DNA of 64,000 bases from Mobula hypostoma (Eukaryota). Location: NCBI RefSeq assembly GCF_963921235.1, contig NC_086097.1:45448001-45512000 (forward strand). Reading direction: 5' to 3'. Positions 6,112-30,849 of the stretch are shown here, piece by piece. A program made the translations under genes and the position numbers. A model generated the notes under the pieces. That model was not told the DNA's origin. It worked only from the letters and a program-made list of their open reading frames with translations, and searched no databases. Position 1 is the first letter of the stretch; every line of letters begins with the position of its first letter.

Positions 6112-7984
6112 AAGGCAACACCTCATGCACTCTTGCCTGTTCCTCCCTCACGCCTACAGCATGGGTATCCCCAAACATTGAGATGCTGTGCTGTTCTCTC
6201 CTTTGCCACTTTCATGTTATGGCCCCAATATCACAGTCCATAGAGGCGATCCATGCCATCAGTTCATTCACCTTATCTGGTGAGCCACATGCATTAAAGC
6301 AGATGCAATTTAAAGTAGTGGTCCTATCTGCTCTTTTTAATGTAAACATGGTTATCCTGATTATCAGGATAACACCCTTTGGTTGCTGCAAGTACTTTTA
6401 TCTTCTCATTGACTTCACCCTTCTGAGTCCCACCTCCCTATCAACCAAGTTTAAACCCTCCCTGTTGGCAAAAACGAAGTTCTCCACCAGGATATTGGAT
6501 CCCTCTGTTTCAAGTGCAACCCATCCCTCTTGTACAGGTTGCCTGTACCACAGAAGAGAACCTGAAACCCTGTCCCCTGCACCAGCTCCTCAGCCACACA
6601 TTCGTCTGGCCTATCTTTCTATTCCTGGACTCACCAGCACAGCACTGGGAGTAATCTGCATTTTACTACCCATGAACTACAGCATTTTAATTTCAATGAG
6701 GGAGCTGTTTCCTGCATCAGCTAAGACTAAACAATGTAACGGAACATTTCTAGTTTCGGAAGAGGAATCAGGCTGAATTTTCTCTGCTGGTCGTAGTTCC
6801 AAATGGAAAAGGCAGTCATGGAAATGATTCAGTAGCATGCAGTACCCGAGTTAAGTAAAAGAAATCCTACCATTTAAAAGTACGTTTTGATGATTTGTAT
6901 TCTGTTTAAAAATTCATGGGGCTAGATTGTGGTCCTTGCACTTGAACCACACAGCCACTCTTCACCTACCCCTTCCCTCCTCACCTCCACCCAGCAATAC
7001 TTATATTTTGAGGTCCTATTAAGGATTCACTTCCAGATGTAAGGCAGGCCAGGATAAGCAACTAGGCTTCAGGCTTCACATTCTCAGACTCTTGGTATAG
7101 GCTTCTCAATTGCGTATATTCATCAATGATAAATTTAAAAACAGCCAGGAGGAATTAAATGCTTTTTAAAAATATATAAATAAACGCTGATATGAATTGT
7201 TTACTATGGTTAAGTAAAACACAGAAAAAACATTACTTCCCCCCAATTCCTCATGTTACTTTCATATCTTACTCACTTACTTCCTCCTGGACTGTTTCTC
7301 AACCTGAAACATCTGCTGTCCATTTCCCTCCATGATACTACATGCTCCACTGTGTTCCACCAGCATTCAGTATTCCAGCATCTGCAGTCACTTGTCTCTG
7401 TTTTCTTAGTATATTTTTCTTTATCTTTAGGTTTTTAACACATGTGTAGTATTTTAAGGTAAGTCTGATTATTTATTAAATAATTATATATTATTATATA
7501 TATTAATCTATTGAAATGTTTTTACAGAGGTTTACTAACAAGTTGAGTGCTTTTGACAACTGTAAGTTACCAGGTCTCCAAGTCAGTTGCTCCCCTTGAG
7601 CAACTAAACAACTTGACCAACATCTTTACTTCGAACTCAAGATGTGAACAGCACCGATTTTATCATTTTATTTTATAAATATAATTTTATTTCTATGTGG
7701 ACCTCAGGTAGAGGAAAATATAATAAGGGGCAAAATGAGATTGAGCATCCACATGAAATACAGTTGTACACAACTGGATAATTCAAAGAGGACCCTTATT
7801 TTAAAGAATTAGAACTGGCAACCAATAAATTGAAACTATAAAATGCCTCTAGCACTATGGCCACAGGTCAACAGAGTACACTAATCCATAATCAACATTT
7901 TGTTTAACCGAAAAGAAATACCCCAAACATTAATTATAATAACTTATCCTAATTGTAAGCAAATCTACAACTACAATGTTATTT

Positions 7985-8126
7985 TTTTTGCCAGTCCTGG
8001 TGAAGGATCTTGGCCCGAAACGTCGACAATTTACTCTTTCCCATTGATGCTGCCTGGCCTGCTGAGTTCCTCCTGCATTTTGTGTGTGTTGCTTGGATTT
8101 CCAGCATCTGCAGATTTTTTCTTGTT
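7985..8126 (+). mobile_element. Short Penelope 3'-terminal module (hammerhead-like motif plus tail) with 13-bp TSD
   Basis: cagtcctggtgaaggatcttggcccgaaacgtcgac followed by gatgctgcctggcctgctgagttcc...ccagcatctgcag. Flanked by tacaatgttattt (7972-7984) and tacaatattattt (8127-8139). Confidence 0.8.
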
Positions 8127-9684: not shown

Positions 9685-11836
9685 ACACAAAATAATCTGC
9701 AGATACTGGGATCAAAGCAACACTCACAGCACGCTGGAGGAACTCAGCAGGTCGGGCAGCATCAGTGGAAACGATGAGTCGACATTTCGGGCCGGAACCC
9801 TTTGTCAGGACTGAACAAAGAAGGAGGGGGAAGGATTTGAAGAATGCTTGTAGGTTCAGTTGAAAGGCCAGTAATTTGAAAGACAAAGGAGTGGGGGAGG
9901 GGAAGCAGGGACGTCATAAGCAGGAAAACAATGGGTAGTAGAAGAAGGAGGCGGAACCATGATGGAGCTGGGGGAGGGGGCAGAGTGAAATAGGGATAGA
10001 GGAAGGGAGGGGGAGGGAATTACGGGAAGTTGGAGGATTCTATGTCCATACCAAGGGGCTGGAGACTACCTAGACAGTATATGAGGTGTTGCTCCTCCAA
10101 CCTGAGTTTAACCTCATTATGGCAGTAGAGGAGGCCATGTATGGACATATCTGAATGGGAATGGGAAGCGGAGTTGAAGTGGGTGGCTACTGGGAGATCC
10201 TGTCTGTTGTGGCGGACGGAGTGGAGGTGCTCGACGAAGTGGTCCCCCAATCTGCGTCAGGTTTCACCGATGTAGAGGAGGCTGCACCAGGAGCACAGGA
10301 TGCAATAGATGACCCCAACAGACTCACAAGTGAAGTGTTGCCTGGGGCCCCGAATGGTGGCAAGAAAGGAGGTGTAGGGACAGGTGTAGCACTTACGCTT
10401 ACAGGGTTAAGTGCCGGGTGGGAAATCCGTGGGGATGGACGGGCGGATAAGGGAGTCGCGGGGGGACCGATCCCTGCGGAAAGCGGAGAGGGGTGGAGAG
10501 GGAAAGATGTGTTTAGTGGTGGGGTCCTGTTGAAGGTGGCGGAAGTTGCGGAGGATAATGTGCTGGATCCGGAGGTTGGTGGCGTGGTAGGTAAGGACAA
10601 GGGGAACTCTGTCTCTGTTGTGGTTGCGGGAGGATGGGGTGAGGGCTGAAGTGCGGGAAATGGAGGAGATGCGGGTGAGGGCATCATTGATAATGGTAGA
10701 AGGGAAATCCATGATCCTTAAAGAAAGAGGACATTTGAGATGTCCTGGAATGGAAAGCATCCTTGGAGCAGATACGGCGGAGACAGAGGAACTGGGAATA
10801 GGGAATGGCAGTTTTGCATGTGGCAGGGTGGGAAGAGGTATAGTCGAGGTAGTTATGAGAGTCAGTGGGCTTGTAGAAGATGTCAGTGGACAGTCTGTCT
10901 CCAGAGATGGAGACCGAGATATCGAGAAAGGGGAGAGAAGTAGCTGAGATAGACCAAGTGAATTTGAGGGCTGGGTGGAAGTTTGAAGTAAAGTCAATGA
11001 AATTGATGAGCTCAGCATGGGTGCAGGAAGCAGCACCAATGTAGTTGTCAATGTACTGAAGGAAAAGTTGGGGAGCAGTACCAGAATAGGTTTGGAGCAC
11101 AAACTGTTCTACATAAACAACGAAGAGGCAGGCGTAGCTGGGTCCCATGCGAGTTCCCATAGTTACACCCTTAGTCTGAAGAAAGTGGGAAGAGCCAAAA
11201 GAGAGTTATTAAGTGTGAGAACCAGTTCCGCCAACCGGAGGAGGGCAGGGGTGGTGGGTAACTGGTGAGGTCTATTATCCAGGAAGTAGCGGAAGGCTTT
11301 GAGGCATTCTTGATGGGGAATGGAGGTGTATAAGGATTGGACATCCACAGTAAAAGTGAAGCAGTTGGGACCGAGGAACTGGAAGTTATTGAAGAGGTGG
11401 AGGGCATGGGATGTATCCCGGATGTAGGTGGGGAGGGACTGAACTATGGGTGACAAAATGAAGTCCAGGTAGGCAGGTACAAGTTCGGTGGGACAGGAGC
11501 AGGCAGAAAATTCTCCAACTTCCGGTAATTCCCTCCCCCTCCCTTCCTCTATCCCTATTTCACTCTGCCCCCTCCCCCAGCTGCCTATCACCTCCCTCAT
11601 GGTTCCGCCTCCTTCTTCTACTACCCATTGTTTTCCTGCCTATGATTTCCCTGCTTCCCCTCCCCCAACCCTTTGTCTTTCAAATTACTGGTATTTCAAC
11701 TGAACCTACAAGCATTCTTCAAATCCTTCCCCCTCCTTCTTTGTTCAGTCCTGACGAAGGGTTCCCACCCGAAACGTCGACTCATCGTTTCCACTGACGC
11801 TGCCTAACCTGCTGAGTTCCTCCAGCCTGCTGTGAG
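9685..11836 (-). mobile_element. Penelope-like retroelement (RT + GIY-YIG), 5'-truncated, with inverted pseudo-LTR and 15-bp TSD
   Basis: Minus-strand ORF pieces: MGTRMGPSYACLF, LQYIDNYIG, LPFLDI, FYKPTDSHNYL, IPYSQFL and the GIY-YIG C-terminus VATHFNSASH...RLEEQHLIYCLGSLQPLGMDIE. 9722-10040 is the reverse complement of 11508-11836. TSD aattattagaagtta (9670-9684) / aattatcagaagtta (11837-11851). Confidence 0.93.
11746..11783 (+). ncRNA. Minimal type-I hammerhead ribozyme motif in Penelope pseudo-LTR
   Basis: agtc-CTGACGA-a-ggg(ttccca)ccc-GAAAC-GTC-gact: stem I agtc/gact, conserved core, short stem II, GUC cleavage triplet. Minimal hammerheads are established features of Penelope-like elements. 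Confidence 0.8.
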
Positions 11837-11894
11837 AATTATCAGAAGTTATCGGTCTGGATAAGTTAAACTCCCAGTGTTGACTCATGCCCCA

Positions 11895-12412
11895 TTTCAA
11901 TGTTCAAAGTAAATTTATTATCAAAGTATGCATATTTTACCATATAGAATACTACCTAGTGATTCATTTTCTGGCAGGCATTTACAATAAAAAAGAAATA
12001 ATAGATTTTATGAAAAACTATATAAAACAAAGACTGACAAACACCAACATGCAAAAAAAGAGGAACTGTGGAAATAAAAATAATACAGAGAACATGAGTT
12101 GTAACGAGTCCTTGAAAGTGAGCTTGTAGATCATAGAACCCATTCTGAGTAGTGGTGAATGAAGTGATTCATGTCAATTCAGAAGCTTGAAGTTTTTAAG
12201 GTTACAACTGTTCTTGAACCTGGTGGTGTGGGACCTAAGTCTTCTGTAACTTATATCTGCTGGTAGTAGCAAAATGAAGGCATGGCCTGGATTGTGACAG
12301 GCTTTTATGATAGATGCTACATTCTTGTGGCAGCCCTCTGTGTAGATGTACTCAATGGCAGGGAAGGCTTCACCTGCAATGGACCAGACTGTATCCACCA
12401 CTTTCTGTATAC
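11895..12412 (-). mobile_element. Rex1/Babar-type LINE 3' fragment
   Basis: ORF 12174-12458 (QKVVDTVWSIAG...PGHAFILLLP...YRRLRSHTTRFKNS) matches the Rex1 ORF C-terminus. Tail caaagtaaatttattatcaaag. Confidence 0.75.
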
Positions 12413-12519
12413 GTTTATTTTTACCTTTAATATTCCTGCAATTACAGAAATCAAACATTTAGCATAGATATTTAACAGCTGTAATGTTTCACTGGTAATG
12501 TAATGGTTTCTCTGTAGCA

Positions 12520-12988
12520 GCAATGTTTAGGTTATGACGAGAGATAACAGGGCTTTGGAATGTTGTTCTTTCTTGTGAGTCTGGAAGAGAGTTTTTTGCG
12601 GTCTTTTGCCAGGGAGAGATGAAGAGAGAAGACACAAATAAAGAGAGTTGGAAGACCACCGGATGGAGTGGACTTGGAGCGAGGGTCCGAAGGTCAATGA
12701 CGATCGGAGGAAGTCAATGGTGGATGACCGGCTTATCAGTGAGCTCCGATGTTTGCACATTAGACTGTTTCATGAGAATGGGCCTTTTTCTTTACTAACC
12801 ATATAGTCAAATTAAGAATTATAAAGCTGAATCGTTTAATCGCATATTGTGTACTGTTAGTTATTTCATGGTACTGATTTGTAACAGGGGACACATCGCG
12901 CAGCATCCACCTGAACAAGATTTCTTAAGTTTGGCCGGGTTGGGGGCTATCACCCTAGATTAAGCCGCTAGCCGAAGCGAGAGTCACA
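12520..12988 (+). mobile_element. LTR-like fragment (3' part)
   Basis: Ends ...gagtcaCA. Shares tgtt.ttctttcttgtg.gtctg with the TG-starting element at 15079, and gggccttt...ataaagctgaa...gttatttc with the reverse strand of 29345-29967. No TSD found. Confidence 0.45.
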
Positions 12989-13067
12989 TATGTAAAGATG
13001 CAATACGATCATATTGACTTCAACCATTATGTGTAAGCTTTAAGTAAACTTTTAATATGAATTTTTA

Positions 13068-13597
13068 ATCTGAGGAAAGACATCCTTGCCATAGAGGGAG
13101 TACAAAGAAGGTTCACCAGATTGATTCCTGGGATGGCAGGTCTTTCATATGAAGAAAGATTGGATGAACTGGGCTTGTACTCGTTGGAATTTAGAAGATT
13201 GAGGGGGGATCTGATTGAAACGTATAAGATCCTAAAGGGATTGGACAGGCTAGATGCGGGAAGATTGTTCCCGATGTTGGGGAGGTCTAGAACGAGGGGT
13301 CACAGTTTGAGGATAGAGGGGAAGCCTTTTAGGACCGAGGTTAGGAAAAACTTCTTCACACAGAGAGTGGTGAATCTGTGGAATTCTCTGCCACAGCAAA
13401 CTGTTGAGGCCAGTTCATTAGCTATGTTTAAAAGGAAGTTAGATATGGCCCTTGTGGCTACAGGGGTCACGGGGTATGGAGGGAAGGCTGGGTTCTGAGT
13501 TGGATGATCAGCCATGATCATAATAAATGGCGGTGCAGGCTCGAAGGGCCGAATGGCCTACTCCTGCACCTATTTTCTATGTTTCTATGTTTCTATG
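13068..13597 (+). mobile_element. CR1 LINE 3' end (young subfamily)
   Basis: ORF 13121-13498 (GLYSLEFRRLRGDLIE...FFTQRVVNLWNSLP). Tail (ttctatgt)n. Nearly identical to 25607-26091. Confidence 0.95.
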
Positions 13598-14649
13598 AAT
13601 ACTATAGCTTAACTTGTTCAATTTGTGAAAAAAAAGAAAACTGGCAAATTTCATTTCGAGTAACAACAGGAATTACTGCATCTCAAAAATTACTGCCGGA
13701 TAAATATATTGTAAAGAGATACTATGGAGCTGGAGTCAGTGTCGTGATAAATACCTGTGCCATAAATAAATCAGATTTTTAAAAAAACTAGTCTACATTG
13801 AGCCAAACCATTACTGAACAACCAGAACACATTCAAACTGTATTGTCTGAAATGGCAAACCAGTTTGTGTGAAGTGAAGATGGCCACGTGACCTTAACAC
13901 TTCCAAAATCCAGTGAGTCCATTGAAAGTATTTTGATACACTTCATTATACTTGCTTGAAGATGACACAATCCAAGTGTACAAAAATTGTTTACTTACAA
14001 TGTGTGGCTATTACACCATTATAAATATTGTGCCTTGACCCATTTGTAACAAGAGTGGCATTTATTTTCATTACTCATTGACTCATTCAAAGGAAATAAG
14101 TTGAACTGATGTGAATTCTGGAAGTAGTATTTAATTAGTACCACTGTAAAGTACCTGAGTTTTTAGTGATGCTCCATCATTACTGTTTAGCAATTTACCT
14201 GACAATAGAAAAACTTTGTACATTGTATTTACCTTATGTGGACATTTCAAAATGAATGTTTTTACTTTATTAGATGTTTATGATATCTCAGCTATTTTTA
14301 ATCTTTATTTGCTTTTCCATATAAAGCCATGATTTTACTGCTCAAGTTTTATTTAAGATTAATGGCATCACCTTTACTTCACTGCTGACTGCAAATTCTA
14401 AGCCATGATCAATGATTTGCTCTGCCATAGCCTGATTTGCTTTTACTCATGAGAACATCAGAAATGAGGTTTTACACTGTTTCCACCATGGTCTGCAGGC
14501 TTTCTTTGTCCCAACTGATCTAGATGGGAGATCAATAGGATTTACTCTTTAACTCCATATTTTTAATATTGTAGTGAAGTATAAAACACTGTAGTAATAC
14601 TAAAGATGATATTACTTTACAGAAATATACATCATCATTTATTTCTCTT

Positions 14650-15078
14650 GCAAATTTCTACAAATGTACCATGAAGAGCACTCTAACTGATTACATCATC
14701 ATCCAGTGAAGGGCCACTGCGTAGAATTGGGAAAAGCTGCAGTAAGTTGTAAACTCAGCCAGCTCCATCATGGGCACCAGCCTCCTCAGCACCGAGGACA
14801 CCTTCAAAAAGTGATGCCTTAAAAAGGTTGTATCCGTTATTAAGGACCCCCATCACCCAGGACATATCCTCTTCTCATTGCTATCATCAGGAGGCAGTAC
14901 AGGAGCCTGAAGACTCACACTCTGTATTTCAGGATCAGTTTTTTCCCCTCCACCATCAGATTTCTGAATGGACAATGAACCCATGAACACTACCTCACTA
15001 GTTATTATTTTGCTCTGTTTTTGCTCTACTTATTTATTTTTTTTATATATACGTATTGTAATTTATAGTGTTTTTATG
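14650..15078 (+). mobile_element. Rex1/Babar-type LINE 3' fragment
   Basis: tgtaccatgaagagcac...ccagctccatcatgggcaccagcc...caccatcagatttctgaatggac, homologous to the end of the RT ORF 35975-36667. Confidence 0.7.
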
Positions 15079-15495
15079 TGTAAGGGGTTTCTTCTTTTAT
15101 GTCACCGCAAAGGGTAACAAAGTGGCTTCTTTGTTATGTTATAATTAAAATGGCTTTTCTGTAATAATAACTGAGATGTAAGGAGTTCTCTCTCTCTCTC
15201 TGCTTGTTTGGGCTATATTATTGATAAGGGAGAGAACGAACCAATTGGGATAGATGTTATTCTTTCTTGTGTGTCTGTAAACTATTGTTTTTCGCGGGCT
15301 TTGAGGGAGAAGGCGTGATGGGGACAGGGAGAGGAGACGCGACGCTGTAAGCTGGGTGGCAGAACAGACCTCGAGCAGGAGTCCGAGGCCCAGGGTCTTC
15401 GGCGAGGAGAGGAGACGAAGACAGACTCGTGTGGGGCGTCTGGTCGACCACCGTGGTTGGTCGAGATGGTCGGAGGGGATCGCATGGTGGAAAGA
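15079..15495 (+). mobile_element. LTR-like fragment (5' part)
   Basis: Begins TGTAAGGGG, has a CpG-rich body and is similar to 12520-12988. It is truncated by a Penelope fragment. Confidence 0.45.
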
Positions 15496-15507
15496 AGACT
15501 CCATTAC

Positions 15508-15760
15508 TTCACAAAATAATCTGCAGGTGCTGTTGTCAAAGGAACACTCACAATGCGCTGGAGGAACTCAGCAGGTCAGTCAGCATCAGTTGAAAAGATT
15601 AGTCGACGTTTCGGGCCGAAACCCTTCATCAGGACTGAAGGAAGAACTTTGGGGAGGGTTTGAAGAATGCTGGTAGTTGAAAAAAAGAGTAATTTGAAAG
15701 ACAAAGGGGTGGGGGAGGGGAAGCAATCTCCTGTCAATCACCTCCCTGCTTCTTCCCTCA
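15508..15760 (-). mobile_element. Penelope 3' fragment
   Basis: Closely matches 9685-9905 (cacaaaataatctgcag...gctggaggaactcagcagg...gtaatttgaaagacaaagg). Confidence 0.85.
15601..15637 (-). ncRNA. Minimal hammerhead ribozyme motif, intact core
   Basis: Reverse complement reads cagtc-CTGATGA-a-ggg(tttcgg)ccc-GAAAC-GTC-gact. Confidence 0.8.
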
Positions 15761-16370
15761 GAGGGTCATGAGGGTGTGGAATGAGCTGCCAGCACAAGTG
15801 TTGAATGTGAGCTCGATTTTTGTTTAAGAGAAGTTTGGACTGGTAAATGGATGGTAGGTTATGGGGAGGGGCTACACTCCAAATTTGAATCAATGGGAGC
15901 AGGCAGTAGTAATAGTTTCAGTATGGACTAAATGGGATGAGGGGCCTGTTTCCTCTTCTTTATAACTCTATATTGTATCATGATCATGAGTGTTCACAGC
16001 CACATTATGATACAGATAATCCTAACTCAAATTAACATATTTAGCAAAGTCTTGTGACATAGAAACTGCCTATTTGTTTTTTATGATACGTAGTAGAATT
16101 TATTCTATAGTTTTGGAATATTGAAAATCAAATTTGTCATGTATATGGAGTGAAGGAGGTGGTCCAACTTCCAGCGGATACAGATTCTGCACTCAGTGAA
16201 TCTTACTATGTTTCAAACTGTTAATTGCAAACGAGGTTTCTCCTGGGCATCAACATCTCAGGTGATCCATCTTGGGCCAATCGCCAAGAAGGCATGCTAG
16301 GGACTCTGCTTCATTAAGAGTTTGAGAAATATACAAGAATCTTTGGCGACATATCAACTCAGGATTCTAG

Positions 16371-17462
16371 TGTCATGGTCCGGATCGGGCTCCCCTTAAA
16401 TTTCCTTTGTTTGTGTTACGATCGGGACCGTTGACTCCTTGTTTCCCTTTATTTCCCTGTTTTCCTGTGTCCCTCGGGCTTGGTGATTAAAGGCAATTTA
16501 CTCTCAACTGAACCGGCAGTTTATAAGTCTCTGGCTTTCAGCCATTAGGCATGAGAGCGTTAATGAAGTCACCGAAGCTAGTGTGAGCCAAAGTCATCTT
16601 GCCGCAGTCAACTAAGTTTCTTGCTGGAGCAAGCCAAGTCTCCTCCTGAAGTAAGTGCCAGCAAGCCACCTTCCCTTGCCAGGGCAGGTCCGTCAAAGTT
16701 AACCCACCGGGGTGAGTCAAGAGATCGCCGTTGCTTAGAGCAGACTTGTGTCCAGTTAAATTACTGTCTATCGTTGTGTTCGGAACCGTCTCGTCGTGTT
16801 CAGCATTCTGTGTATGAGTCCCGGCCCTATGTCCTGTTCCCAAGGAGGGGTCCCGGCTCTGTGTTCCATGCTCCTGTCTCTCAAGTCCAAGCTCCGAGGT
16901 TCAAGTATCCAGTCCAAGCTCTGAGGTTCAAGTATCAAGTCCATGTCTGGGTCCCGAGTTCCAGTTTCCAGTTCCAAGTCCAAGTCCAAGTCAAAGCTTT
17001 ATGTTTTCGTCCTGTGCAGGAGTTCATTGTCCAGTCCCGATGCCTTGCCACGTCTTGTCCTCGCCTGGGTCCAGAGTCCGAGCCCAAGTCAAGACCCAAG
17101 TTCCGGGTCCCTATCCAGTCTCTGGCTCGGAGTCCTTGTCCAGGTTCCAAGTTCCTAGTTCCTCGTCCAGGTCTTGCTTTCCTAGTCTAGTCCTAGCCCA
17201 GGCCCTGTATCCTAGCCTCGTCCAGGGCCTGTGTCTTGTCCATCGTCGTTTCTTCCCCACTTCCTTTGCTTTCTTGACACACCTTGTCCTGTTCCTAGTC
17301 CATTACGCTTATTCCCGCTTCTGCTTTGCTCTCTCCTTGAACTCTCTCTGTTCTATCCTTGTGTCATGGCTTTCCTTGTATGTAATTATTAATAAACTCT
17401 ATTTAGTTAACCCTACAAAATGTCACCGTTTGTGTCCTGCATTTGGGTCCACCCTTGTGACA
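16371..17462 (+). mobile_element. Solo LTR (Gypsy-type) with 5-bp TSD, inserted in a Rex1 fragment
   Basis: TGTCA...TGACA termini. TCTAG direct repeats at 16366-16370 and 17463-17467. AATAAA at 17391. Internal (tccaag)n repeats. Confidence 0.9.
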
Positions 17463-17467
17463 TCTAG

Positions 17468-17930
17468 TCAATTTCTCTAGATGTACCATGGAGAGCATTC
17501 TGACTGGTAGCATCACCATCTGATGTGGAGGCTCTAATGAGCAGGACTGAAACAGGCTGCAGAGGGTTCTACACTCAGCTAGGCACAACACTCCCTACCA
17601 TTAAGGACATCTTCAAGAAACCATTCCTGAAGAAGACAGCATCCATTATTAATGACCCTTGCATCTGGGACATGCCCTCTTGTCATTACTATCACCAGGG
17701 AGGTCATACAGGAGACTGAAGACCCACACTCAACACTTTAGGATCAGCTTCTTCCCCTCTGCCTTCAGATTTCTGTATACAGTAGTCCAAGAACAAGACA
17801 TCATTATTCCTCTTTTGTACTATCTATTTATCTTTGTAACTTAGTTTTTATATCTTGCACTGAACTGCTGCTTCAAAACAACAAATGTCACCATATAGGT
17901 CAGTGATAATAAACCTGATTCTAATTCTGA
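17468..17930 (+). mobile_element. Rex1/Babar-type LINE 3' fragment
   Basis: agatgtaccatggagagcattctgactgg... ending gataataaacctgattctaattctga. Its upstream part lies before the solo LTR (about 16305-16365). Confidence 0.7.
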
Positions 17931-18137
17931 AAATACTGATAAGTCAATCATGGATATTGTGTCCTAGCTGTCTATGCGGATATGCAAGCCAGAGTAAATG
18001 GAGAGCAAACTTCTGCCCAGGTAGCAGGCTCCCTCTCTCCACACAGCTGATGAATCCAAAGGAATAGCAGAGACCGATACAGTTTGGCACCTGTGGTGTT
18101 GCAGGAGAAGCCAGTCAGTGTTGAAGACAACGTGTAG

Positions 18138-18760
18138 CTCATGGATGACCTCACCTGGTCCCTAATATCACCTTCCTGAACAAGGCACAGCAGCGCCTCC
18201 ACTTCCGAAGGAGATTGAGGAAAATGAGGTGTGTACCCTCCCCTCCCCACCCCACCATTTTAACTGCATTTTATAGGAGCACCATTGAGAGTGCCCTGAC
18301 AAGTTATATCTCCGTCTGGTATGGAAGCAGCCGAGCATCAGACCGGAAATCCCTACGAAGGAGTGTGAGAATGGCTGAGAGGATCATAGGCATCTCCCTA
18401 CCATCCATCAGTGACATTTATCAGGAGTGTTGCAAATGCAGGGCACTTAGTATTATGAGGAATCCCACCCATCCATCCAGCATCCTCTTTGACTTTCTAC
18501 CATCAGTCAGAAGATTACGATGCATAAAAACAAGAACCGTCAGGATGGGAAACAGCTTCTTTCCTCAAGGCCATTAGGCTTCTGAACTCCCTGCTGCATC
18601 ACTGGTGTCACTGGTTAATCTGTTCTGTACCTCATAATATTTAATTTATGCACTTTGGTTTATGTAATCCATCTATAGGTTTCATCCTTACTTTCACAAG
18701 TTATTATGTATGTGTTATGTACACTCCAGCTCTTTACACAAGGTTCGGAGAAACATTGTC
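18138..18760 (+). mobile_element. Rex1/Babar-type LINE 3' fragment (tail resumes about 19610-19655 after the LTR)
   Basis: ORF 18215-18577: ILTAFYRSTIESALTSYISVWYGS...LRRSVRMAERIIG...HPSSILFDFLPS.RRLR.IKTRT.RMGNSFFP. Confidence 0.85.
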
Positions 18761-19604
18761 TGTCATGGTCTGTGAAGTCTGCATTCTGGTTCATGGTCCG
18801 GTCCATCAATCCTTGTTCTGGGTTTCCCTGTTTTCTCCCTTGTTCTGTTGGGTGCCTTAATTGAGGCACCTGATTCTCATTTCGGTCTGGCACATAAATA
18901 CCTCTGCAAACCAGAGATTGTTTGCTGGACTGTTCCCTTCCCTTCCCCTTCCTTCTGAATCCTTTGCCTGCGACCTCGCCAGTATCCCTGTCAAGTTCAA
19001 CCACCGGAGTGAGACTGGAGCCTTGCCACGCCAAGATAAGGAACTATCTATCGTTGAGTTTGGAACTGTCCCTTTGTGTCCCCGTGTTTAGTGTCCGTGT
19101 TCTGTGTACAAGTCCCGGCCCTACATCCTGTTCCCAAGGAGGGATACTGACTCTGTGTTCTGTGTTCCGTGTTCCAGTGCTCAGGTCCAAGGCCAGGCGC
19201 CGTGTTCCAGCTCTGTCCAAGTCTGAGCTTCGTGTCCTCATCCAGTTCTGGTGCCTCATCCGGTGCTGGAGATTCCTTGTCCTGTGATGGATCGTCCCCA
19301 TCCGAAACCTCAGCAGTCATCCCAGCCCTGCATCCTAGGAAGGGTCCCGGCTCTGTACCCAAGAGTCTAACCAAGTCGGGTCCAGGATTTGAGCCAAATC
19401 TAGTTCAAGAGCCACATCCTGTGCTGGAGATTCCTCGCCCAGCCCGGTGCTGGTGTTTCCTCGTCCTGTCCAAGCCAAGGCTTTGTGCTCTCGTCCTGTG
19501 CAGGAGTTCCACATCCTGTCCTTGCCAAGGTCCTGGTCCTGTTCCTAGAACTTCAGTGTCTGTGCCTTGCACTTGGGTCCGCCTTCCAACGCCCCAGTGT
19601 AACA
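18761..19604 (+). mobile_element. Solo LTR (related to 16371-17462) with 5-bp TSD
   Basis: TGTCA...TAACA termini. TTGTC direct repeats at 18756-18760 and 19605-19609. Shares tgtcatggtc, gtcccggcccta..tcctgttcccaaggaggg and ttgggtcc with the other LTR. Confidence 0.9.
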
Positions 19605-20257
19605 TTGTCCTGTTGGACGATATATTAGTTAAATGACAATGAAACTGACTTGACGTAGGGATTCCAGCTCCATATTTTTTGTTGGGGCTTACTCCTGAAG
19701 CTTTCTCAATGAATGGTGACTGGGTATAGCCATAAGGCAGCGGAGATTTGAGATCAGAGTTTTCGTTCTCCAAGAAGTCCTGTGAACCATGGTTGACAAA
19801 GCCCATCTGCCTGAAGTGACTGGTTTTAAAGCACTAGTTACTCATTTTTCCCTTCTTTCAGTAGAAATAGTTCCACCAGGCTTAATAGTTGAGCCACGCA
19901 TGCAGGCCAGGAGCTAGACTTAGTTGTCAGAGGCTATTTAAGACGCATGCCATTGGGAGCATTTAATAGGTAGTAGGAGCTAACACCAACTACGTCCTCC
20001 GCCATGACAACTTCACGGAACAAATGATACATGTGATGAGCACAAAATATAGATGGCAATAATTATTGTCGAAACTCCAGTAACACAGACTTGCCTGTTT
20101 CCAGCACCCTGCACATTTACTTAAGGATGATCCAAAGCTCTTTATGGACATTGAAACATTTCTGAAGTGCTGTTATTGGCGTCATGCAAGGAAAAGAAAA
20201 ACCAATTAATGCATAGCAAGCTCCCACAAATGACAGTCTGATAGGCATGCAAATAAA

Positions 20258-20741
20258 CACTCAGTAGTCACAAAGTGGTACACCTGTGCAATTGTTAATG
20301 CAAATATTTAATCAGCCAATCATGTGGCAGCAACGGAGTTCATAAAAACATGCACATATAGCCAGAAGGTTCAGTTGTTATTCAGACCAAACATCAGAAT
20401 GAGGAAGAAATGTGATCTAGGTGATTTTGATTACAGAAAGATTGCTGGAGATAGATGGGGCGGTTTGCATATCTCAGAAACCGCTGATCTCTTGGGATTT
20501 TCACACGCAGAAGTCTCTGAGTTTACAGAGAATGGTGCGAAAAACAAAAAAACAAAAAAATACAGCAAGTGGCAGTTCTGTGGACAACCATGACAAGAGA
20601 GGTCAGAGGAAAATGGCCAGACTGGTTCAAGCTGACAAGAAGGCACCAGTAACTCAAATAACCGTGTGTTATAACAGTGATGTGCAGAAGAGCATCTCTG
20701 AATGCACTTCAAACCTTGAAGTGGATAATGGCCACTGAGTG
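20258..20741 (+). mobile_element. Tc1-derived internally deleted DNA transposon
   Basis: TIR cactcagt.g.ca / tggccactgagtg. Encodes a Tc1-like N-terminal HTH remnant KCDLGDFD...GGLHISETADLLGFSH. Confidence 0.8.
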
Positions 20742-21084
20742 TGTCTTTGAAAATGTCATCGAGGGATAAAGTTATTGGTGAGGCCAAAGATATCATGAAA
20801 TAGTATTTCAGAAACAAAGCAATTCTTATTGTAACATGCTCTCACAGCTGCACTGGAATGCCTACCTAAAATTTTGTTTAAAATGGGAATTATACATTTT
20901 TTTAGAATTAAACATATTGTGAAATCTATGAATTACCTCAAATCTTGCTGTATATTAGGATTGCAAAAAATATAACAAGTTTTTTAAGCATGTTGTACCA
21001 GACATTCAGTCATTCTTGTCTGGCACGTGGTTTCAGGATTAACGGGGACACGTTATGAACGTTCCTGACTCGACCCTTGTAATT

Positions 21085-21195
21085 TTTTACAAGGCTGGAC
21101 ACTCAACCCGGCACAGATGGAAAGCATGCCTGACCTGGATTCAAACTCGGGAACCTTCGCTCCAGAGTCCGGCGCTGATCTCACTGTGCCACCAC
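21085..21195 (-). mobile_element. tRNA-derived SINE fragment
   Basis: Reverse strand reads tggtggcacagtg (A box-like)...gagtttgaatcc (B box-like). Same family as 59415-59532. Confidence 0.55.
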
Positions 21196-21324
21196 TGAGT
21201 ACATATTTGCATGCTATCAGACTGTTGTTTGTGGGAGCTTGCTATGCATTAATCGGTTTTTCTTTTCCTTGCATTGTTAAATTATTAACAATGTTTCATA
21301 ATTGTCAGTGCCCTTATCTTTTAA

Positions 21325-21640
21325 ACCTGGTAGTGGACCACAACCTTGTTGTAGGGTTTGCCTCAATGACCCAGACATCTATGTTGGCTGGAGTGAGGGC
21401 CTTGTGCTTTGGATCTTGGTAGGGTCATCCATTCCAAGCAGGTCAAAGAGTGGTCCACCAGTCCTCCGGGTTCGAGGATTAGCTCGGGGCTAACAACCCC
21501 AACTGGTAAAACAAAATTATTATGGAAACAGCAATGAAGAATCTTTCTGTATCTGCATGCGATGGTGTGGTCAGACAGAGATGGAGGTCTTCATTGCCAC
21601 CTGAAACGCCTCAGCATAAGTTACACTACCCAAGTAAGTT
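21325..21640 (+). mobile_element. RTE-clade derived short element (5' UTR joined to 3' end)
   Basis: ggaccacaaccttgt...ctcaatga...ggtagggtcatcca...caggtcaaag...gctaacaacc resembles RTE/BovB-type 5' UTRs as I recall them. It ends with a tggagg.cttcattgcc...aagtaagt RTE-like tail. Confidence 0.5.
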
Positions 21641-23779
21641 ACCTTTAGTACTTCACAAATGGAGATAGAGATAATTTGGTCAATGAGCGTCTGAATTGTA
21701 ATGAAAATTACTGAATACCAATACAGGAGACTGAAGACCCACACTCAATACTTTAGGATCAGCTTCTTCCCCTCTGCCTTCAGATTGCTGTATACAGTAG
21801 TCCAAGAACAGGACCTCATTATTCCTCTTTTGTACTATCTGTTTATCTTTGTAACTTAGTTTTTATATCTTACACTGAACTGCTGCTTCAAAACAACAAA
21901 TGTCACCATATAGGTCAGTGACAATAAACCTGATTCTAATTCTGAAAATACTGATACATGTGAGGCCCTCTGTTGGTCAGAGTCAATCATGGATATTGTG
22001 TTCTAGCTGTCTGCATGCAAGCCAGAGTAAATGGCGAGCAAACTTCTGCCCAGGTAGCAGGCTCCCTCTCTCCACACAGCTGATGAGTCCAAAGGAACAC
22101 CACAGACCGATACAGTTTGGCACCTGTGATGTTGCAGGAGAAGCCAGTCAGAGCTGAAGACAACATATAGCTCATGGATGACCTCACCTGGTCCCTAATA
22201 TCACCTTCCAGCAGCGTCTCCAATTCCGAAGGAGATTGAGGAAAATGCAGGTTACCTGGATGAAGATGAAGACACTGAAGCTTTTGAATTTGCTTCATGA
22301 TTTAATAAACCAGCAGTCTGTCGCAATCTCTAGTCTGCCCAGCATGCGGAGTTCGGCGCATCACCTCGTTTCCCGCAGATTCCCTTTGAGAACAGCTTTG
22401 ACATTAACAAAAGCCCGGGAATTCGCGTGATCATGTAAAAGTCACAGCACTCGACTGTGCCCTTTTTGGATTATCAGAGATAAAAAACACGCCCGGTTTT
22501 CTCCTGCAAAGTAAGTGGGTATAGACAGCAATATATGCCCTTTGGAATGAAGGCTCCCAAACCGATAGGGATTAGAACATCCCACAAGATATGTTCAGCA
22601 AATTGATTCTTAAAAGCAAATATTTGCTCCGAGTTTTTCTGTTATTTCATCCAACAGCTCTCGCTGCCGAGACCCTAAAACCGACCCATCCTTGCCAGAT
22701 CATCAATTTATTTCAGCTGCATTCCCCGCCCGGGAAAGCCAGCGAATAATTTGAGACTAAGTGCTTATGCGAAAATTACTTGTAGAAATACAAAAACACG
22801 ATAGAATGATTTATCGTCGTACATCTCTGTCTGATGCGGCAAATCCACCTCAGAGAACCGAGTTTACAAATGATCCCCAGCAGCATGCCTTTGATTTGGC
22901 CCTCCTACCCAGTACTACACAACGCACCATGTTTAGTTATATCTTACGTTTTCCATTCCTTGCTGCATCAGAATTGGGTCACTTTTAAATATTTAACTCG
23001 TCAAGTCGATTGCTTAAAAATTAGCAGAGTTATTGTCTAAGATCGTTGATCATTTATCACAAGAAGAAAATAAGACATTTCGTAATTCTCTGCAAGATCA
23101 TTGAACACAAATGTCTGCTGTTTCTCTCCGCGTGCGCTGCTTGACCTGCTGAATGTTTCCAACATGAGTTTTCTTTTCCGATTTCCGAACTTCCTCTCTA
23201 ATATTTTCTGATTTCACTCACACATACCTTTTATTTATTCATTTATTTCCCCTCTTTATTATGTTTCTCTTTCATTTCCTCAATATAAAAGTCGTAGAGC
23301 TATTTTACACATAAAATAAATCGAAGTTTGTGGTCTTGCGTTCAACGTGTTTGAAAATAACCTTTTCAGAAGCAGAATCACTTTATTGACAGTAATTGAC
23401 CGGTTCTGTGCAAAGCACAAAGGACAAACAATAAATTGCAAGCCAACCATTTACAAGACAATAGTGCAAACAGCCATAAGCTATCAACAATTGGCAGAAT
23501 GGTCACATGTGCAAACGTCAGTAATTAACGCCACCTTTAAAACTTATTCGAATAAACTAGTTTTGTTCAAAGAGCTCCAGAAATGGCTGTAAATGGCGAT
23601 CTAATACCGTTCATTAAAATAGATCTGTAATCGTATAAATTGCAAGCGTCACTAGCAAACTCGAGTGCAGGAAACACAGAGACTTCGGCAATTAAAATAA
23701 AACTAGAGATTAACAAGAAAAATCTAATAAGAGCTGTGCAGACTGTGCAGAACTGTGCAGAATCTTGAAGTACTAAAAT

Positions 23780-24275
23780 TCACTCCTTTCTAAGATAAGG
23801 AGACCAAATTGCTCACAGTACTCTAAGTGAGGCCTCACCAGTGCTTTAAAGAAACTCAACATTTTGCTTTTATATTCTAGTCCTCTTAAAATGAATTACA
23901 TTTGCCTTCCTCATCACAGACTCAAACTGCGAATTAACCTTTAGAGAATCCCGCACAAGGTCTCCAGGGTCCCTTTGAGCATCAGATTTTTGAATTTTCT
24001 GTCCAGTTAGAAAACAGCCTACCCAGGGGGTCCCAGCAATTTCTATGCCATGGAACAATACCATTATGCAAGGAATCCATAGACCCCCAGGTCAGGTCTA
24101 CCCTTTTATTTCTTCTAGCAACGTGCATGGCCACACAGTATTCCACCTGCTACTTCTTTACCCATTCTCCTAATCTGCCTTAGTCCTTCTGTAGTGTCTT
24201 TACTTCCTCAAAACTACCTGCCCCTCCAACGATTGTTGTATCACCTGCAAACTTTGCAACAAAGCCATCAATTCT
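23780..24275 (-). mobile_element. CR1 LINE fragment, degenerate
   Basis: Reverse strand resembles CR1 ORF2 (QRDPG.LV.DSLKV..., gcactggtgaggcctcacttagagtactgtgagc). Confidence 0.7.
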
Positions 24276-24345
24276 GTTATCAAGCAACACACATCAAAGT
24301 TGCTGGTGAATGCAGCAGGCCAGGCAGCATCTCTAGGAAGAGGTA

Positions 24346-24383
24346 CAGTCGACGTTTCGGGCCGAGACCCTTCGTCAGGACTA
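24346..24383 (-). ncRNA. Minimal hammerhead ribozyme motif, intact core
   Basis: Reverse complement reads tagtc-CTGACGA-a-ggg(tctcgg)ccc-GAAAC-GTC-gactg. Confidence 0.8.
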
Positions 24384-25606
24384 ACTGAAGGAAAAACTAG
24401 TAACAGATTTGAAAGTGGGAGGGGGAAGGGAGAGTCATTGACATATAACATTAAAAAGAAGGCCCCCATCACCCAGGACATGCCCTGTTCTCACTGTTAC
24501 CAGCAGGAAGGAAGTACAGGAACCTAAAGGCACACACTCAGCATTTCAGAAACAGCTTCTTCTCTGATTTTTAAATGGACATTGAACCCATGAACACACA
24601 TGAAATGCAGGCCAGGCAGCTTCTATAGGAGAAAAAAGTACAGTTGACGTTTCTGGCTGAAATTCTTCGGCAGGACAGGGAAAAAAACGGCTGAGGAGTA
24701 GATTTAAAAGGTGGAGGGAGGGGACAGAGAAATAGAAGGCGACAGGTGAAACCTGGAGGGGGAGGGATGAAGCAAAGAGCTGGGAATTTGATTGATGAAA
24801 GAGACAGAAGGCCATGGAAGTGAAAAGGGAGAAGCTGAAGCACCAGAGGGAGGTGATGGGTGGGCAAGGAGATAAGGTGAGGGAGGGAAAAGGGGATGGG
24901 AAATGGTGAAGTGTGGAGGGGAGGTGGGAGGCATTACCAGAAGGTTGAGAAATCGATGTTCATGCCATCAGGTTGGAGGCTACCCAAACGGAATATAAGG
25001 TGTTGTTCCTCCAACCTAAGTGTGGCCTCATCACGACAGTGGAGGAAGCCATGGATGGACATATCGGAATGGGAATGGGAAGTAGAATTAAAATGGGTGG
25101 CTACTGGGAGATCCCGCTTTTTCTGGCGGACGGAGCTTATATGCTCGGCGAAGCGGTCTCCCAGTCTACGTCAGGTCTCCCCGATATACAGGAGGCCACA
25201 TCGGGAACACCGAACACAGTATATGACCCCAACAGAGTCATAGATGAAGTGTCGCCTCACCTGGAAAGACTGTTTAGAGCCCTAAATGGTAGTGCGGGAG
25301 GAGTTGTAGGGGCAGGTGTAGCACTTGTTTCGCTTGTAAGAATAAGTGCCAGGAGGGAGATCAGTGGGGAGGGACGAATGTACAAGGGAGTCGCATAGGG
25401 AGCGATTCCTGCCGAAAGTAGAAAGTGGAGGGGGCGGGGGGATGGAGGGAGGAAAGATGTGTTTGGTGGTGGCGGAAGTTTCAATCAATTATGTGCTGGA
25501 TACCGGAGGCTGGTGGGGTGGTAGGTGAGGACGAGAGGGACCCTATCCCCAGTAGGGTGGCGGGAGGATGGGGTAAGAGTAGACGTGCGTGAAATGAAAG
25601 AGGTGC

Positions 25607-26091
25607 GGTTCACCAGATTGATTCCTGGGATGGCAGGACTTTCATATGATGAAAGACTGGATCGACTAGGCTTATACTCGTTGGAATTTAGAAGATTGAG
25701 GGGGGATCTTATTGAAACATATAAAACCCTAAAGGGATTGGACAGGCTAGATGCAGGAAGATTGTTCCCGATGTTGGGGAAGTCCAGAACGAGGGGTCAC
25801 AGTTTAAGGATAAAGGGGAAGCCTTTTAGGACCGAGATTAGGAAAAACCTCTTCACACAGAGAGTGGTGAATCTGTGGAATTCTCTGCCACAGGAAACAG
25901 TTGTGGCCAGTTCATTGGCCATATTTAAGAGGGAGTTAGATATGGTCCTTGTGGCTAAAGGGATCAGGGGGTATGGGGGGAAGGCTGGTACAGGGTTCTG
26001 AGTTGGATGATCAGCCATGATCATACTGAATGGCGGTGCAGGCTCGAAGGGCCGAATGGCCTACTCCTGCACCTATTTTCTATGTTTCTAT
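25607..26091 (+). mobile_element. CR1 LINE 3' end nested in Penelope
   Basis: C-terminal part of ORF 25525-26001 (RFTRLIPGMAGLSY...FTQRVVNLWNSLP). Tail ttctatgtttctatg. Penelope sequence resumes afterwards. Confidence 0.93.
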
Positions 26092-30057: not shown

Positions 30058-30670
30058 GAACACAAACACAGGAAATCTGCAGATGCTGGAAATTCAAGCA
30101 ATACACATCAAAGTTGCCGGTGAATGCAGCAGGCCAGGCAGCATCTCTAGGAAGAGGTACAGTTGATGTTTCGGGCTGAGACCCTTCGTCAGGACTAACT
30201 GAAGGAAGAGCTCGTAAGAGGTTTGAAATTGGGAGGGGCAGGGGGAGATCCAAAATGATAGGAGAAGACAGGAGGGGGAGGGATGGAGCCAAGAGCTGGA
30301 CAGGTGATTGGCAAAAGGTGATATGAGAGGATCATGGGCGGGGGGCGGGGGGGGGAGGCCCAGGGAGAAAGAAAAGGGGGAGGAGGGGAAAAAACCCAGA
30401 GGATGGGCAAAGGGTATAGTGGGAGGGACAGAGGGAGAAAAAGGAGAGAGAGAAAGAGAAAAAGAAAAAGAATGTGTGTATATAAATAAATAACAGATGG
30501 GGTACGAGGGGGAGGTGGGGCATTAGCGGAAGTTTGAGAAGTCAATGTTCATACCATCAGGTTGGAGGCTACCCAGACGGAACATAAGGTGTTGTTCCTC
30601 CAACCCGAGTGTGGCTTTGTCTTTACTGTGAGACATATCAGAGCGGGAATGGGACGTGGAATTAAAATGT
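30058..30670 (-). mobile_element. Penelope 3' fragment with hammerhead-like motif (30160-30197)
   Basis: Matches 24283-24430 almost exactly. Purine-rich 3' UTR and the GIY-YIG end (EEQHLMFRLGSLQPDGMNID on the reverse strand). Confidence 0.85.
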
Positions 30671-30849
30671 GCACACACTGCTTTTGCAGATAACTTTAGC
30701 ATAGCAGTAAACCTCTTAACCAGGGCATTACATCATTATTTTAATTTTTTACATACATACATACATACAAAACCAACAGCACAATACAGACAATTCGGCC
30801 CACAAAGCTGTGCCGAATATGTCCTTATTTTAGAAATTAACACGAGGTG

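Follow-up and report, generated by a model that had tools for sequence, protein, structure and literature searches.

Minimal hammerhead motifs in a 64-kb window of ray DNA as probable end-pieces of an abundant Neptune-type Penelope-like element

Cervera and De la Pena (2014) described minimal hammerhead ribozymes (min-HHR) of Penelope-like elements (PLEs) at thousands of copies per genome in fish, coelacanth and frog, and found monomers to be uncleaved and dimers weakly cleaved (PMC4209133). The function of PLE hammerheads has since been called unclear (10.1101/2021.04.23.441226). For the PLE Poseidon_Ac, the template for insertion is uncut RNA and the ribozyme cuts only with protein (PMC11167929). 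A CX2-5CxxC finger between RT and endonuclease is a Neptune trait (10.1101/2021.04.23.441226), and the combination of an inverted 5' copy, a tail at one end and a target duplication has been described for PLEs (10.1101/2021.04.23.441226, PMC3846280). Non-LTR retrozymes have been reported in one chondrichthyan genome (PMC7229834, 10.64898/2026.07.22.740005). Apart from the 2026 preprint, a literature search covering mainly open-access papers, judged by title or abstract, found no report on Penelope hammerheads in sharks or rays, and cartilaginous fish are not named in the text portions and searchable supplement examined of PMC4209133.

Here, we analyse a window of 64 kb (the whole stretch of DNA under study) in which an earlier note had listed 11 hammerhead-like sites, put at about 10 copies. 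We put the probability at roughly 90% that these motifs represent minimal type I hammerheads from the pLTR of an abundant Neptune-type PLE of rays, and that the window carries dead end-pieces of this element. A pattern of core plus palindrome in which stems are not required (CTGAnGA-N8-22-GAAACGTC) matches exactly three times, at 11751-11778(+), 15605-15632(-) and 24351-24378(-), and never in 100 dinucleotide shuffles (mean 0.00, largest 0), bearing out the three intact cores noticed earlier at 11746, 15601 and 24346. With up to three mismatches allowed, the family pattern has seven matches in the window and none by chance in shuffles. An nhmmer profile built from 10 window copies returned 24 rows, of which 23 have E ≤ 0.0043 (the 10 copies matched by construction and 13 further) and the last is doubtful (E 0.78), while the reversed window, used as a control, gave none. 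All 11 sites carry the motif, with coordinates correct to 0–3 nt; the sites were real, but about 10 was too few given 23 family pieces by profile, and near-complete copies at 63355(+), 34455-34492(-), 33737(+) and the arm 33917-33979(-) had been overlooked. Among 13 ungapped copies scored, core, palindrome and both stems are intact in three; the copy at 41363 was left out of the scoring because a deletion shortens its GAAA box. The Rfam search that the earlier note had proposed found no hammerhead family in the window at E ≤ 1, a warning that PLE-type minimal hammerheads escape Rfam; two weak Rfam matches at 33915-34054 coincide with an inverted pair there. The family DNA pattern had no matches in metagenome contigs, and viral contigs contained no protein relatives; the sole match of a relaxed pattern in viral contigs (L001) was taken as chance, being without stem I.

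In the window copies the boxes of the core (CUGAnGA, GAAA, UH) are arranged as in type I hammerheads, with exact letters in three copies. Stem II consists of 4 bp with a 4-nt loop, accompanied by an extra A after A9 and a G10.1-C11.1 pair, and not of 3 bp around six free nucleotides as first proposed; the near-absence of stem III and its overlap with a palindromic ACGT hold up, as the three intact copies lack loop 3 and have a palindromic ACGU at 15.2-16.2. Helix I has 4-5 bp and helix III cannot close, and the canonical type I traits (a looped helix III, a 6-bp helix I, loop-loop contacts, an Rfam match) are not seen. Predicted energies place a monomer rod 2.2-4.0 kcal/mol below the fold with stems I and II. 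A lone copy would be silent, because helix III cannot fold and the RNA is predicted to collapse into this rod, in which, judging from the anatomy and the published work, the cleavage triplet would be paired to core bases. For a tandem pair, simple energy modelling puts the fold with two hammerheads 11-19 kcal/mol higher than the optimum, so that even dimers would probably need help, and the intermolecular ACGU helix is predicted to contribute only -1.7 kcal/mol.

Among the three intact copies, stem I has no two-sided change and stem II only a one-sided change. Covariation in stems I and II, which the earlier note had named as a check, is strong in relatives. We considered 41 relative loci with 300 nt beyond the ORF end (~40-60% protein identity), seeking the exact core with no stem requirement. 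The motif lies 86-211 nt after the ORF in 18 of these, the exact core is missing in the other 23, and both stems are present in 16 of the 18, the less biased count. A strict descriptor found 28 motifs at 88 loci of RT relatives, compared with 1 in 10 shuffles; every one of the 28 carries the additional base following A9, and in 26 loop 3 has zero length. In an alignment of 20 motifs, pairing holds in 91.8% of cells, two-sided changes occur in 9 of 11 pairs, and covariation reaches 0.729 versus 0.18 shuffled and at most 0.14 slid, values that lean towards the result because the descriptor that picked the 17 relatives in it demands 3 bp per stem. The core boxes are invariant and G10.1-C11.1 is G-C in 20/20, and RNAalifold, unaided, recovers the same stems I and II. 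Together with the anatomy, this covariation supports the dimer-type minimal type I class suggested at the outset. One relative, L006, is full-length; its ORF has 964 aa, and each of its two direct repeats contains the motif. Such a partial tandem of direct-repeat pLTRs is absent from the window and was seen in L006 only.

The link to PLEs, also drawn in the earlier note, is borne out by RT and endonuclease frames directly upstream of the hammerheads at 9813 and 24678. The first belongs to a composite insertion, 9685..11836, in which a 5'-truncated minus-strand copy (9685 to ~11508) is joined head to head with a short inverted plus-strand 3' end (11509-11836; self-BLAST, 328 nt at 91%). The final ~35 nt of tail are present on the left arm only, and the whole is flanked by a direct repeat (9670-9684 / 11837-11851, 14/15 identical), whereas none of 400 random pairs reached 13 with one mismatch. 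Three-frame translation reveals a broken ORF at 10020..11501(-), with several frameshifts and stops and its stop codon at 10022-10020. It encodes, in order, an RT core and thumb, a Cys-rich linker and a GIY-YIG-type endonuclease with CxxC and two His, and is judged 5'-truncated because its start falls inside a conserved N-terminal motif. There are 275 homologues, the best named ones in rays and sharks (66-82%), and the window ORF aligns in order with full-length relatives (RT, then GIY-YIG). Pfam finds no family in the window pieces of the frame and matches RVT_1 and GIY-YIG in the relative P0070. The hammerhead in sense to this ORF (9776..9813, minus strand) has a broken core with G8 changed; the one on the inverted arm (11746..11783, plus strand), antisense to the adjoining ORF, is intact, with a predicted cut between 11778 and 11779. 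A second long and older copy, 24607..26408(-), is 72-74% identical to the first and spans the RT thumb through the endonuclease, with a fragment of a different retroelement lodged at ~25609-26095; its hammerhead (24641-24678, minus strand) has a broken core and stem II. By its sequence the element classes as an EN+ PLE, with a single ORF of PLE-type RT and C-terminal GIY-YIG, broken in the window. The linker reads CX3CxxC at 10406-10380 and also in the copy at 24.9-25.3 kb, and it is on this CX2-5CxxC linker, a trait common to Nematis, that the probable Neptune-type assignment rests.

All 23 family pieces correspond to the 3' end of an endonuclease-bearing, Neptune-type PLE, comprising the hammerhead and 60-95 nt. 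Two short end-pieces on the minus strand carry the other intact hammerheads: 15510..15727, with ~90 nt of upstream spacer, a full tail and a hammerhead at 15600-15637 (predicted cut between 15605 and 15604), and 24271..24430, whose hammerhead at 24346-24383 has a 5-bp stem I (predicted cut between 24351 and 24350). The minus-strand end-piece 30065..30680, 91% identical to the 24383 copy, retains the endonuclease end, and its hammerhead (30160-30197) keeps the core letters, although CpG changes have destroyed both the palindrome and the first pair of stem I. Three short insertions have damaged hammerheads. The first, 7985..8126(+), starts ~7 nt before stem I of a broken-core hammerhead (7992-8029) and has a flanking repeat at 7972-7984 / 8127-8139 (12/13). 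The second, 33399..33523(-), also with a broken core, starts inside stem I and has a weak 7-bp flanking repeat, a length within chance (16 of 400 random pairs reach 7, and two such were found). The third, 41367..41460(+), has a deleted hammerhead, a short tail and a perfect 13-bp target duplication (41354-41366 / 41461-41473), with microhomology in that its 5' junction overlaps stem I. An old short copy in ZNF839 intron 1, 49146..49249(-), keeps the core letters with stem I and palindrome broken.

The window totals five inverted pairs, with the long tail on one arm only. The hairpin pair 33917..34109, with broken cores, joins a minus arm truncated inside stem II (33917-33979) to a plus arm from 33978 with a long tail, flanked by a repeat at 33910-33921 / 34110-34121 (11/12). 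An older pair, 34389..34589, has a minus arm with a decayed hammerhead (34455-34492), a plus arm of tail only and a flanking repeat of 10/11. The pair 34858..34973 consists of tail pieces without a hammerhead. Downstream of the third matched ZNF839 exon, 63279..63447 combines a minus arm of long tail only with a plus arm from 63355 bearing a broken hammerhead (flanking repeat 63266-63278 / 63448-63460, 12/13). Decayed pieces at 7297..7388(+), 23107-23165(+), 33124-33171(-), 33737-33820(+) and 35211-35284(-) were found by nhmmer with E from 1e-7 to 4e-3. Flanking repeats of 11-15 bp occur at six insertions; target duplications were sought and not found at 15510-15727, 24271-24430, 30065-30680 and 34858-34973.

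None of the 23 pieces starts at the predicted cut site, which fits the uncut-template insertion of Poseidon_Ac (PMC11167929). Among the 19 pieces whose 5' end lies between -100 and +90 of stem I, eight start within -6 to +6 of it, a post hoc count that gives a scan-corrected p of 0.0013 under a uniform null; in five of the eight, a flanking repeat of 11-13 bp or an inverted junction pins down the boundary. This clustering would be expected if the hairpin had a structural role, with RT ending or switching template after the hammerhead, stem I as the preferred 5' boundary, and cleavage secondary or lost. The hairpin is predicted to be able to refold in the cDNA strand (-4.2 to -6.0 kcal/mol, the full rod in two of three), and ribozyme mutants had no effect on insertion in vitro (PMC11167929). 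However, the clustering comes from small numbers and a crude null, the ends of old copies are fuzzy, and the search profile begins at stem I and is blind to upstream likeness. A structural role also leaves the invariant catalytic letters and covarying stems of distant relatives unexplained, and folding prediction finds no rod in 7 of 17 relatives, so we consider it unlikely.

The same eight copies have one type of post-hammerhead spacer in common, while the 9813/11746/15637 and 24383/30197 types carry upstream sequence. By this evidence, the short copies could descend from a SINE-like, non-autonomous master, ~130 nt long with the hammerhead at its start, that the PLE protein mobilizes in trans. 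The tail has several times the summed contig depth of the endonuclease end, which would agree with such a master, although depth is not a copy number and heavy 5' truncation alone yields more tails than ORF ends; the derivation of retrozymes from pLTRs in the 2026 preprint (10.64898/2026.07.22.740005) is a precedent. Against it, the long 24678 copy has a similar spacer with the full ORF upstream, the starts range from -6 to +6 and three of them are arms of inverted pairs rather than uniform units, and the window contains no tandem array of the unit. We accordingly see a separate master as improbable, and continue to read the short pieces as truncated ends of the PLE itself.

Between ORF end and hammerhead lies a pyrimidine-rich spacer, 9811..10023(-), that is a possible pLTR intron. 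A donor-like GT opens it, one base ahead of the stop codon, and a pyrimidine tract with an AG closes it within the 5' strand of stem I; both candidate splice sites (10024 and 9816) improve when family majority letters are used, and a gene model, P0002, departs from the PLE frame at this ORF-end/spacer point. The idea is weakened because the stem I AG is missing in distant relatives and the donor GT in one of four window copies. The joint 10023 to 9811 is not among the 15 listed of 1221 joints in the sequencing-run contigs, and RNA-type runs have low depth on the spacer that is matched by low depth on the RT start and so carries no information on splicing. Sought as a possible place for the start codon, the tail frame that is open in one subfamily had no matches beyond two predicted host-gene isoforms (E 0.15), and it is closed in other subfamilies. 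Pieces of the window's PLE do enter ray gene models. We offer as a speculation, to which we give low odds, that the foot of stem I serves as a functional boundary. It would be the 3' splice site for a pLTR intron beginning at the ORF stop, splicing of which would shorten helix I and thereby switch the ribozyme; it would also be the preferred RT end and fold-back point, generating vast numbers of ~130-nt, hammerhead-headed insertions. If so, the hammerhead fold would set offspring size without cutting.

The family is very large: 174,376 contigs of one DNA-type run match a 3.6-kb stretch of the PLE. Its sequence also appears in 8,446-18,244 contigs of three runs guessed to be RNA, though DNA may be among them. 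The genomic scale proposed in the earlier note thus stands; its large population of self-cleaving RNAs does not, with 3 of 13 copies intact, CpG decay, a predicted monomer rod and intact same-strand neighbours at least 8.7 kb apart. CpG columns are changed at 35 of 120 positions versus 38 of 312 elsewhere (p 5e-5), 28 of the 35 by deamination. The non-CpG core is changed less often than free positions (9/108 vs 12/60, p 0.05) and not clearly less than the tail (59/405, p 0.11), so weak selection on copies after insertion may exist, with the caveat that subfamily differences inflate the free and tail counts. Copies do occur in introns at the ZNF839 locus of a myliobatiform ray, where the window sits, but those copies have broken cores or stems: 49146-49249(-) is antisense to ZNF839 in intron 1, and the 63284-63439 pair lies beyond the last matched exon. 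Around the three intact copies, a search for host exons found none (of 250 unmasked frames of ≥40 aa in the region 1-42 kb, 150 were scanned, none reaching the Pfam cut-off), nor were kinase motifs found when sought in 1-42 kb as host exons. The size of the family, its presence in the putative RNA runs, two intact copies on the same (minus) strand and the slightly better-kept core would suit dispersed copies that self-cleave in the host, as trans dimers or in introns, and shape its transcripts. Yet an intact arm (11746) and a broken one (9813) belong to one insertion, which makes survival look random; copies in introns are broken and one is antisense, the intermolecular ACGU helix is weak and the nearest intact same-strand pair widely spaced, published monomers are inactive and dimers weak (PMC4209133), and the anole data contain no reads ending at the cut site (PMC11167929). 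Such cleavage in the host is very improbable. That an ordinary repeat here resembles a hammerhead by chance, for which the lack of an Rfam hammerhead match and folding z-scores of only -1.2 to -1.4 could be cited, is refuted for practical purposes by the absence of the pattern from window shuffles, by compensatory stems at the same place in distant relatives and by the presence of all four extra min-HHR traits (trait list in PMC4209133).

Returning to the reading of the motifs as pLTR hammerheads of a PLE, the following course of events would account for these observations. The hammerhead lies in sense ~100-250 nt after the ORF end, in the repeat that also appears to head the next unit; covariation indicates that the PLE lineage selects the core, stem I, stem II and the self-complementary ACGU that replaces helix III. 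Cleavage after the triplet would need a second copy in a tandem precursor, or the PLE protein as chaperone, and would serve processing of the PLE's RNA; RNA cleavage in a tandem precursor is, on balance, the probable ancestral role. Insertion structure suggests two RT start sites ~30 nt apart, 60-95 nt past the hammerhead, with uncut RNA as template. Early stops would be usual and fold-back frequent, leaving short single or inverted end-pieces with target duplications, and inserted copies then decay, mainly at CpG. The value of the family lies in its scale, which offers very many naturally occurring insertion ends and stem variants; as dated copies are numerous, statistics on 5' ends could directly probe the role of the PLE hammerhead in vivo.

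The window motif is the min-HHR that Cervera and De la Pena described in 2014 (PMC4209133). It shares with PLE min-HHR the type I order, missing loop 3, palindromic 15.2-16.2, extra base after A9, G10.1-C11.1, 4-5 bp helix I and pLTR location in sense to the ORF, as well as the occurrence mainly as single dispersed copies and opposite-strand pairs (PMC4209133). It differs from the schistosome families, with a helix II of 4 bp instead of 7-8 bp, and at 23 pieces per 64 kb its local density greatly exceeds that of the 4,000-9,000 motifs per genome called remarkable there (PMC4209133). Like Neptune EN+ PLEs (10.1101/2021.04.23.441226, PMC3846280), the element combines RT, Cys-rich linker and C-terminal GIY-YIG, and its insertions have 5' truncation, an inverted 5' copy, short target duplications and a 30-40 bp tail at one end; unlike them, it has no full-length copy in the window. 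Similarities to Poseidon_Ac of the green anole (Frangieh et al. 2024, PMC11167929) include a hammerhead ~100 nt from two internal RT starts that define an optional tail, the uncut hammerhead kept in insertions and AT-rich targets, whereas the Poseidon clade is without the linker and the Poseidon_Ac start codon lies inside the hammerhead (PMC11167929). Non-LTR retrozymes likewise have type I hammerheads in repeats derived from PLE pLTRs (PMC7229834, 10.64898/2026.07.22.740005), but form head-to-tail tandems of 51-972 bp units with a hammerhead each, where the window has only single or head-to-head pieces. The hammerhead matters little by itself because its kind, an ordinary one, has been known from PLEs since 2014; here it is met mostly in decayed end-pieces of one abundant element.

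All 11 hammerhead sites named in an earlier note on this DNA hold the motif, at offsets of 0–3 nt, and the exact core with its palindrome occurred in three copies in the window, compared with 0 in 100 shuffles. A profile search, with a profile made from 10 window copies, returned 24 rows, 23 of them with E <=0.0043, and 0 in the reversed window. The motif had thus been correctly recognized and its count, about 10 copies, set too low; because 23 pieces reach this threshold, the family is ~2x denser than that note stated. Three of the 13 ungapped scored copies (11746–11783 on the plus strand, 15601–15637 and 24346–24383 on the minus strand) retain core, palindrome, stem I and stem II, with a stem I of 4–5 bp, a stem II of 4 bp closed by a 4-nt loop, and an extra A after A9. 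The Rfam search proposed as a check matched no hammerhead family in the window. With a covariance model trained on 20 motifs, 3 of them window copies, these intact copies reached 48 bits, compared with <=37 bits for the remaining copies; the model also gave a further weak family match at 33611–33633. Eleven of the 23 family pieces, of differing ages and on both strands, crowd into 2.2 kb at 33124–35284, which suggests a local insertion hot spot.

The proposed link to Penelope-like elements (PLEs) is borne out by a broken frame that adjoins the 9813 copy upstream, on the same strand, and comprises RT, thumb, a CX3CxxC linker and a GIY-YIG-type endonuclease. Its nearest named proteins come from rays and sharks, and full-length relatives from marine data align to it in the same domain order, one of them bearing the Pfam GIY-YIG domain. 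The ray family shares this linker with Neptune and Nematis PLEs, for which a Cys-rich linker is described as a trait (10.1101/2021.04.23.441226; PMC3846280). A second long PLE copy terminates at the 24678 motif and is the older of the two, since a piece of another retroelement (25609–26095) is inserted into it. Ray gene models with host-gene names (P0002, P0003, P0011, P0121 and P0122) are, or contain, element frames or tail, a matter of exonisation or mis-annotation.

A strict descriptor found 28 motifs in 88 RT-relative loci, compared with 1 in 10 shuffles. In 41 loci the sequence reaches 300 nt beyond the end of the ORF. The exact core (stems not being demanded) lies 86–211 nt past that end in 18 of them, 16 of which have both stems; it was not found in the other 23, several of which carry one or two changes. 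In an alignment of 20 motifs (3 window copies and 17 of the relatives' 28, excluding near-duplicates and two with a 2-nt loop 3), 91.8% of cells pair, a figure biased high because rows were picked for having stems, and 9 of 11 pairs show two-sided change. RNAalifold recovers identical stems. From the two-sided changes, the RNAalifold result and the 16 of 18 loci, we therefore conclude that stems I and II covary in relatives, contrary to the lack of covariation that the earlier note had named as evidence against a ribozyme.

One full-length relative, L006, has the motif in both direct repeats. The first ATG of its 964-aa open frame (ORF 1057–3951) straddles the predicted cut site of the motif at 1028–1062; cleavage there, if any, would split the start codon, and a conserved Met lies downstream at 1189. 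A core variant outside the descriptor used, U4 to C with intact stems, recurs in a single invertebrate-type family, where five loci (L066, L082, L084, L085 and L086) carry it ~100 nt past the end of the ORF, and L015 and L059 have an additional change at core position 3. Animal-type PLEs with hammerheads also occur on L082–L089, eight contigs from a single genome that is classed as a bacterial MAG; their presence points to host DNA within that assembly.

The family is very large and strongly 5'-truncated. In one DNA-type sequencing run (X1), a contig of 1609 bp is identical to window positions 8104–9712 and 174,376 contigs map onto 7900–11500; summed depth, which is not a copy number, is ~20 for unique DNA, ~8e4 at the RT start, 1.3e6 at the endonuclease end and 6.3e6 in the tail. 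Changes in window copies are enriched at CpG (35/120 vs 38/312). Outside CpG, the core has changed slightly less than free positions (p 0.05) and shows no clear advantage in conservation over the tail (p 0.11), a gap that subfamily differences may explain.

The 9813 and 11746 copies belong to one insertion, of which 11746 forms the inverted arm; this unit (9685–11836) is flanked by repeats of 15 bp that differ at one position. Four further inverted pairs each confine the last ~30 tail bases to one arm, three of them having flanking repeats of 11–13 bp; the single short copies 7985 and 41367 have 13-bp flanking repeats. Between random pairs of places, repeats of 13 bp with one mismatch arose in 0/400, of 11 bp in 3/400 and of 7 exact bp in 16/400. 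Inverted pairs, a one-arm tail and flanking repeats are hallmarks of PLE insertion (10.1101/2021.04.23.441226; PMC3846280).

Eight of 19 short pieces start <=6 nt from the foot of stem I, the 5' start of the hammerhead (scan-corrected p 0.0013, post hoc and against a uniform null). These starts may arise where reverse transcription halts or switches template at the hairpin, and the same eight pieces, from one window, would also fit a short non-autonomous master. It is also conceivable, if somewhat doubtful, that the ray spacer is a pLTR (pseudo-LTR) intron: the pyrimidine-rich spacer after the ORF opens with a GT that resembles a splice donor, one base ahead of the stop codon, and closes with a pyrimidine tract plus an AG that falls within stem I, family majority letters improve both putative splice sites, a stingray gene model departs from the PLE frame at the putative donor, and in Drosophila virilis the intron of the pLTR runs up to the 5' end of helix I (PMC4209133). 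However, the GT is missing in one of four copies, the AG is not in distant relatives, and no spacer joint appears among the 15 of 1221 joints displayed.

The ZNF839 protein of Mobula hypostoma is matched on the plus strand by 42789–43892, 49418–50356 and 60789–60929 (the first two at 100%), its first three coding exons; residues 727–1262 fall outside the window. The match assigns this DNA to M. hypostoma or to a ray very near to it. Family pieces do lie inside introns, as had been claimed, in that a broken piece at 49146–49249 is antisense to ZNF839 in intron 1 and a broken pair at 63284–63439 is counted inside the gene, but no intact copy is there. Near the three intact copies, a Pfam scan of 150 of 250 unmasked frames and a search for kinase motifs revealed no host exons, and these copies may sit in a long host intron. 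About 550 nt before ZNF839 begins there is a tRNA gene at 42172–42244 (+), with anticodon CUU (lysine) from the Rfam alignment. Pfam RVT_1 matches mark other broken retroelement frames (251–1132, 35972–36667, 38446–39180 and 50779–51441), which look like CR1 and Rex1 types, and a presumably Tc1-like transposase piece (53549–54238) is also present; self-repeats and broken retroelement frames mask ~38% of the window. Long open frames also occur in two related stretches of higher GC content at 16538–19833, which include a 27-bp tandem at 16881–16943, and no Pfam match was found among the frames scanned there.

A lone motif would be unable to close helix III, and its best fold in a folding model is a rod with core bases paired to the cleavage triplet, 2.2–4.0 kcal/mol below the open form. 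Two copies may lend each other helix III through the palindrome, a weak helix (-1.7 kcal/mol in the energy model). For a tandem pair, a model that ignores tertiary contacts puts the double hammerhead 11–19 kcal/mol higher in energy than the best fold. If the ray motif cleaves at all, it would probably do so in active elements, within their tandem precursor, and the window pieces are probably by-products.

In the window, the motif lacks the traits of a non-LTR retrozyme and those of a canonical type I hammerhead. A preprint lists one chondrichthyan with retrozymes (bioRxiv 10.64898/2026.07.22.740005), and our incomplete coverage of the literature yielded no report devoted to PLE hammerheads in sharks or rays. 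At the level of sequence, the ray motif has all the traits of the minimal type I hammerhead of PLE pLTRs, and it joins this known kind. Such minimal monomers did not cleave and dimers did so weakly (PMC4209133), and the hammerhead of an anole element cut only with its own protein. Uncut RNA served for insertion of the anole element, whose optional tail is defined by two internal sites at which reverse transcription starts (PMC11167929). The ray folding energies agree with silent monomers and weak dimers (PMC4209133, PMC11167929). Like the anole element, the ray insertions keep the whole hammerhead uncut, their 3' ends fall at two places ~30 nt apart, and 0/23 family pieces in the window begin at the predicted cut site.
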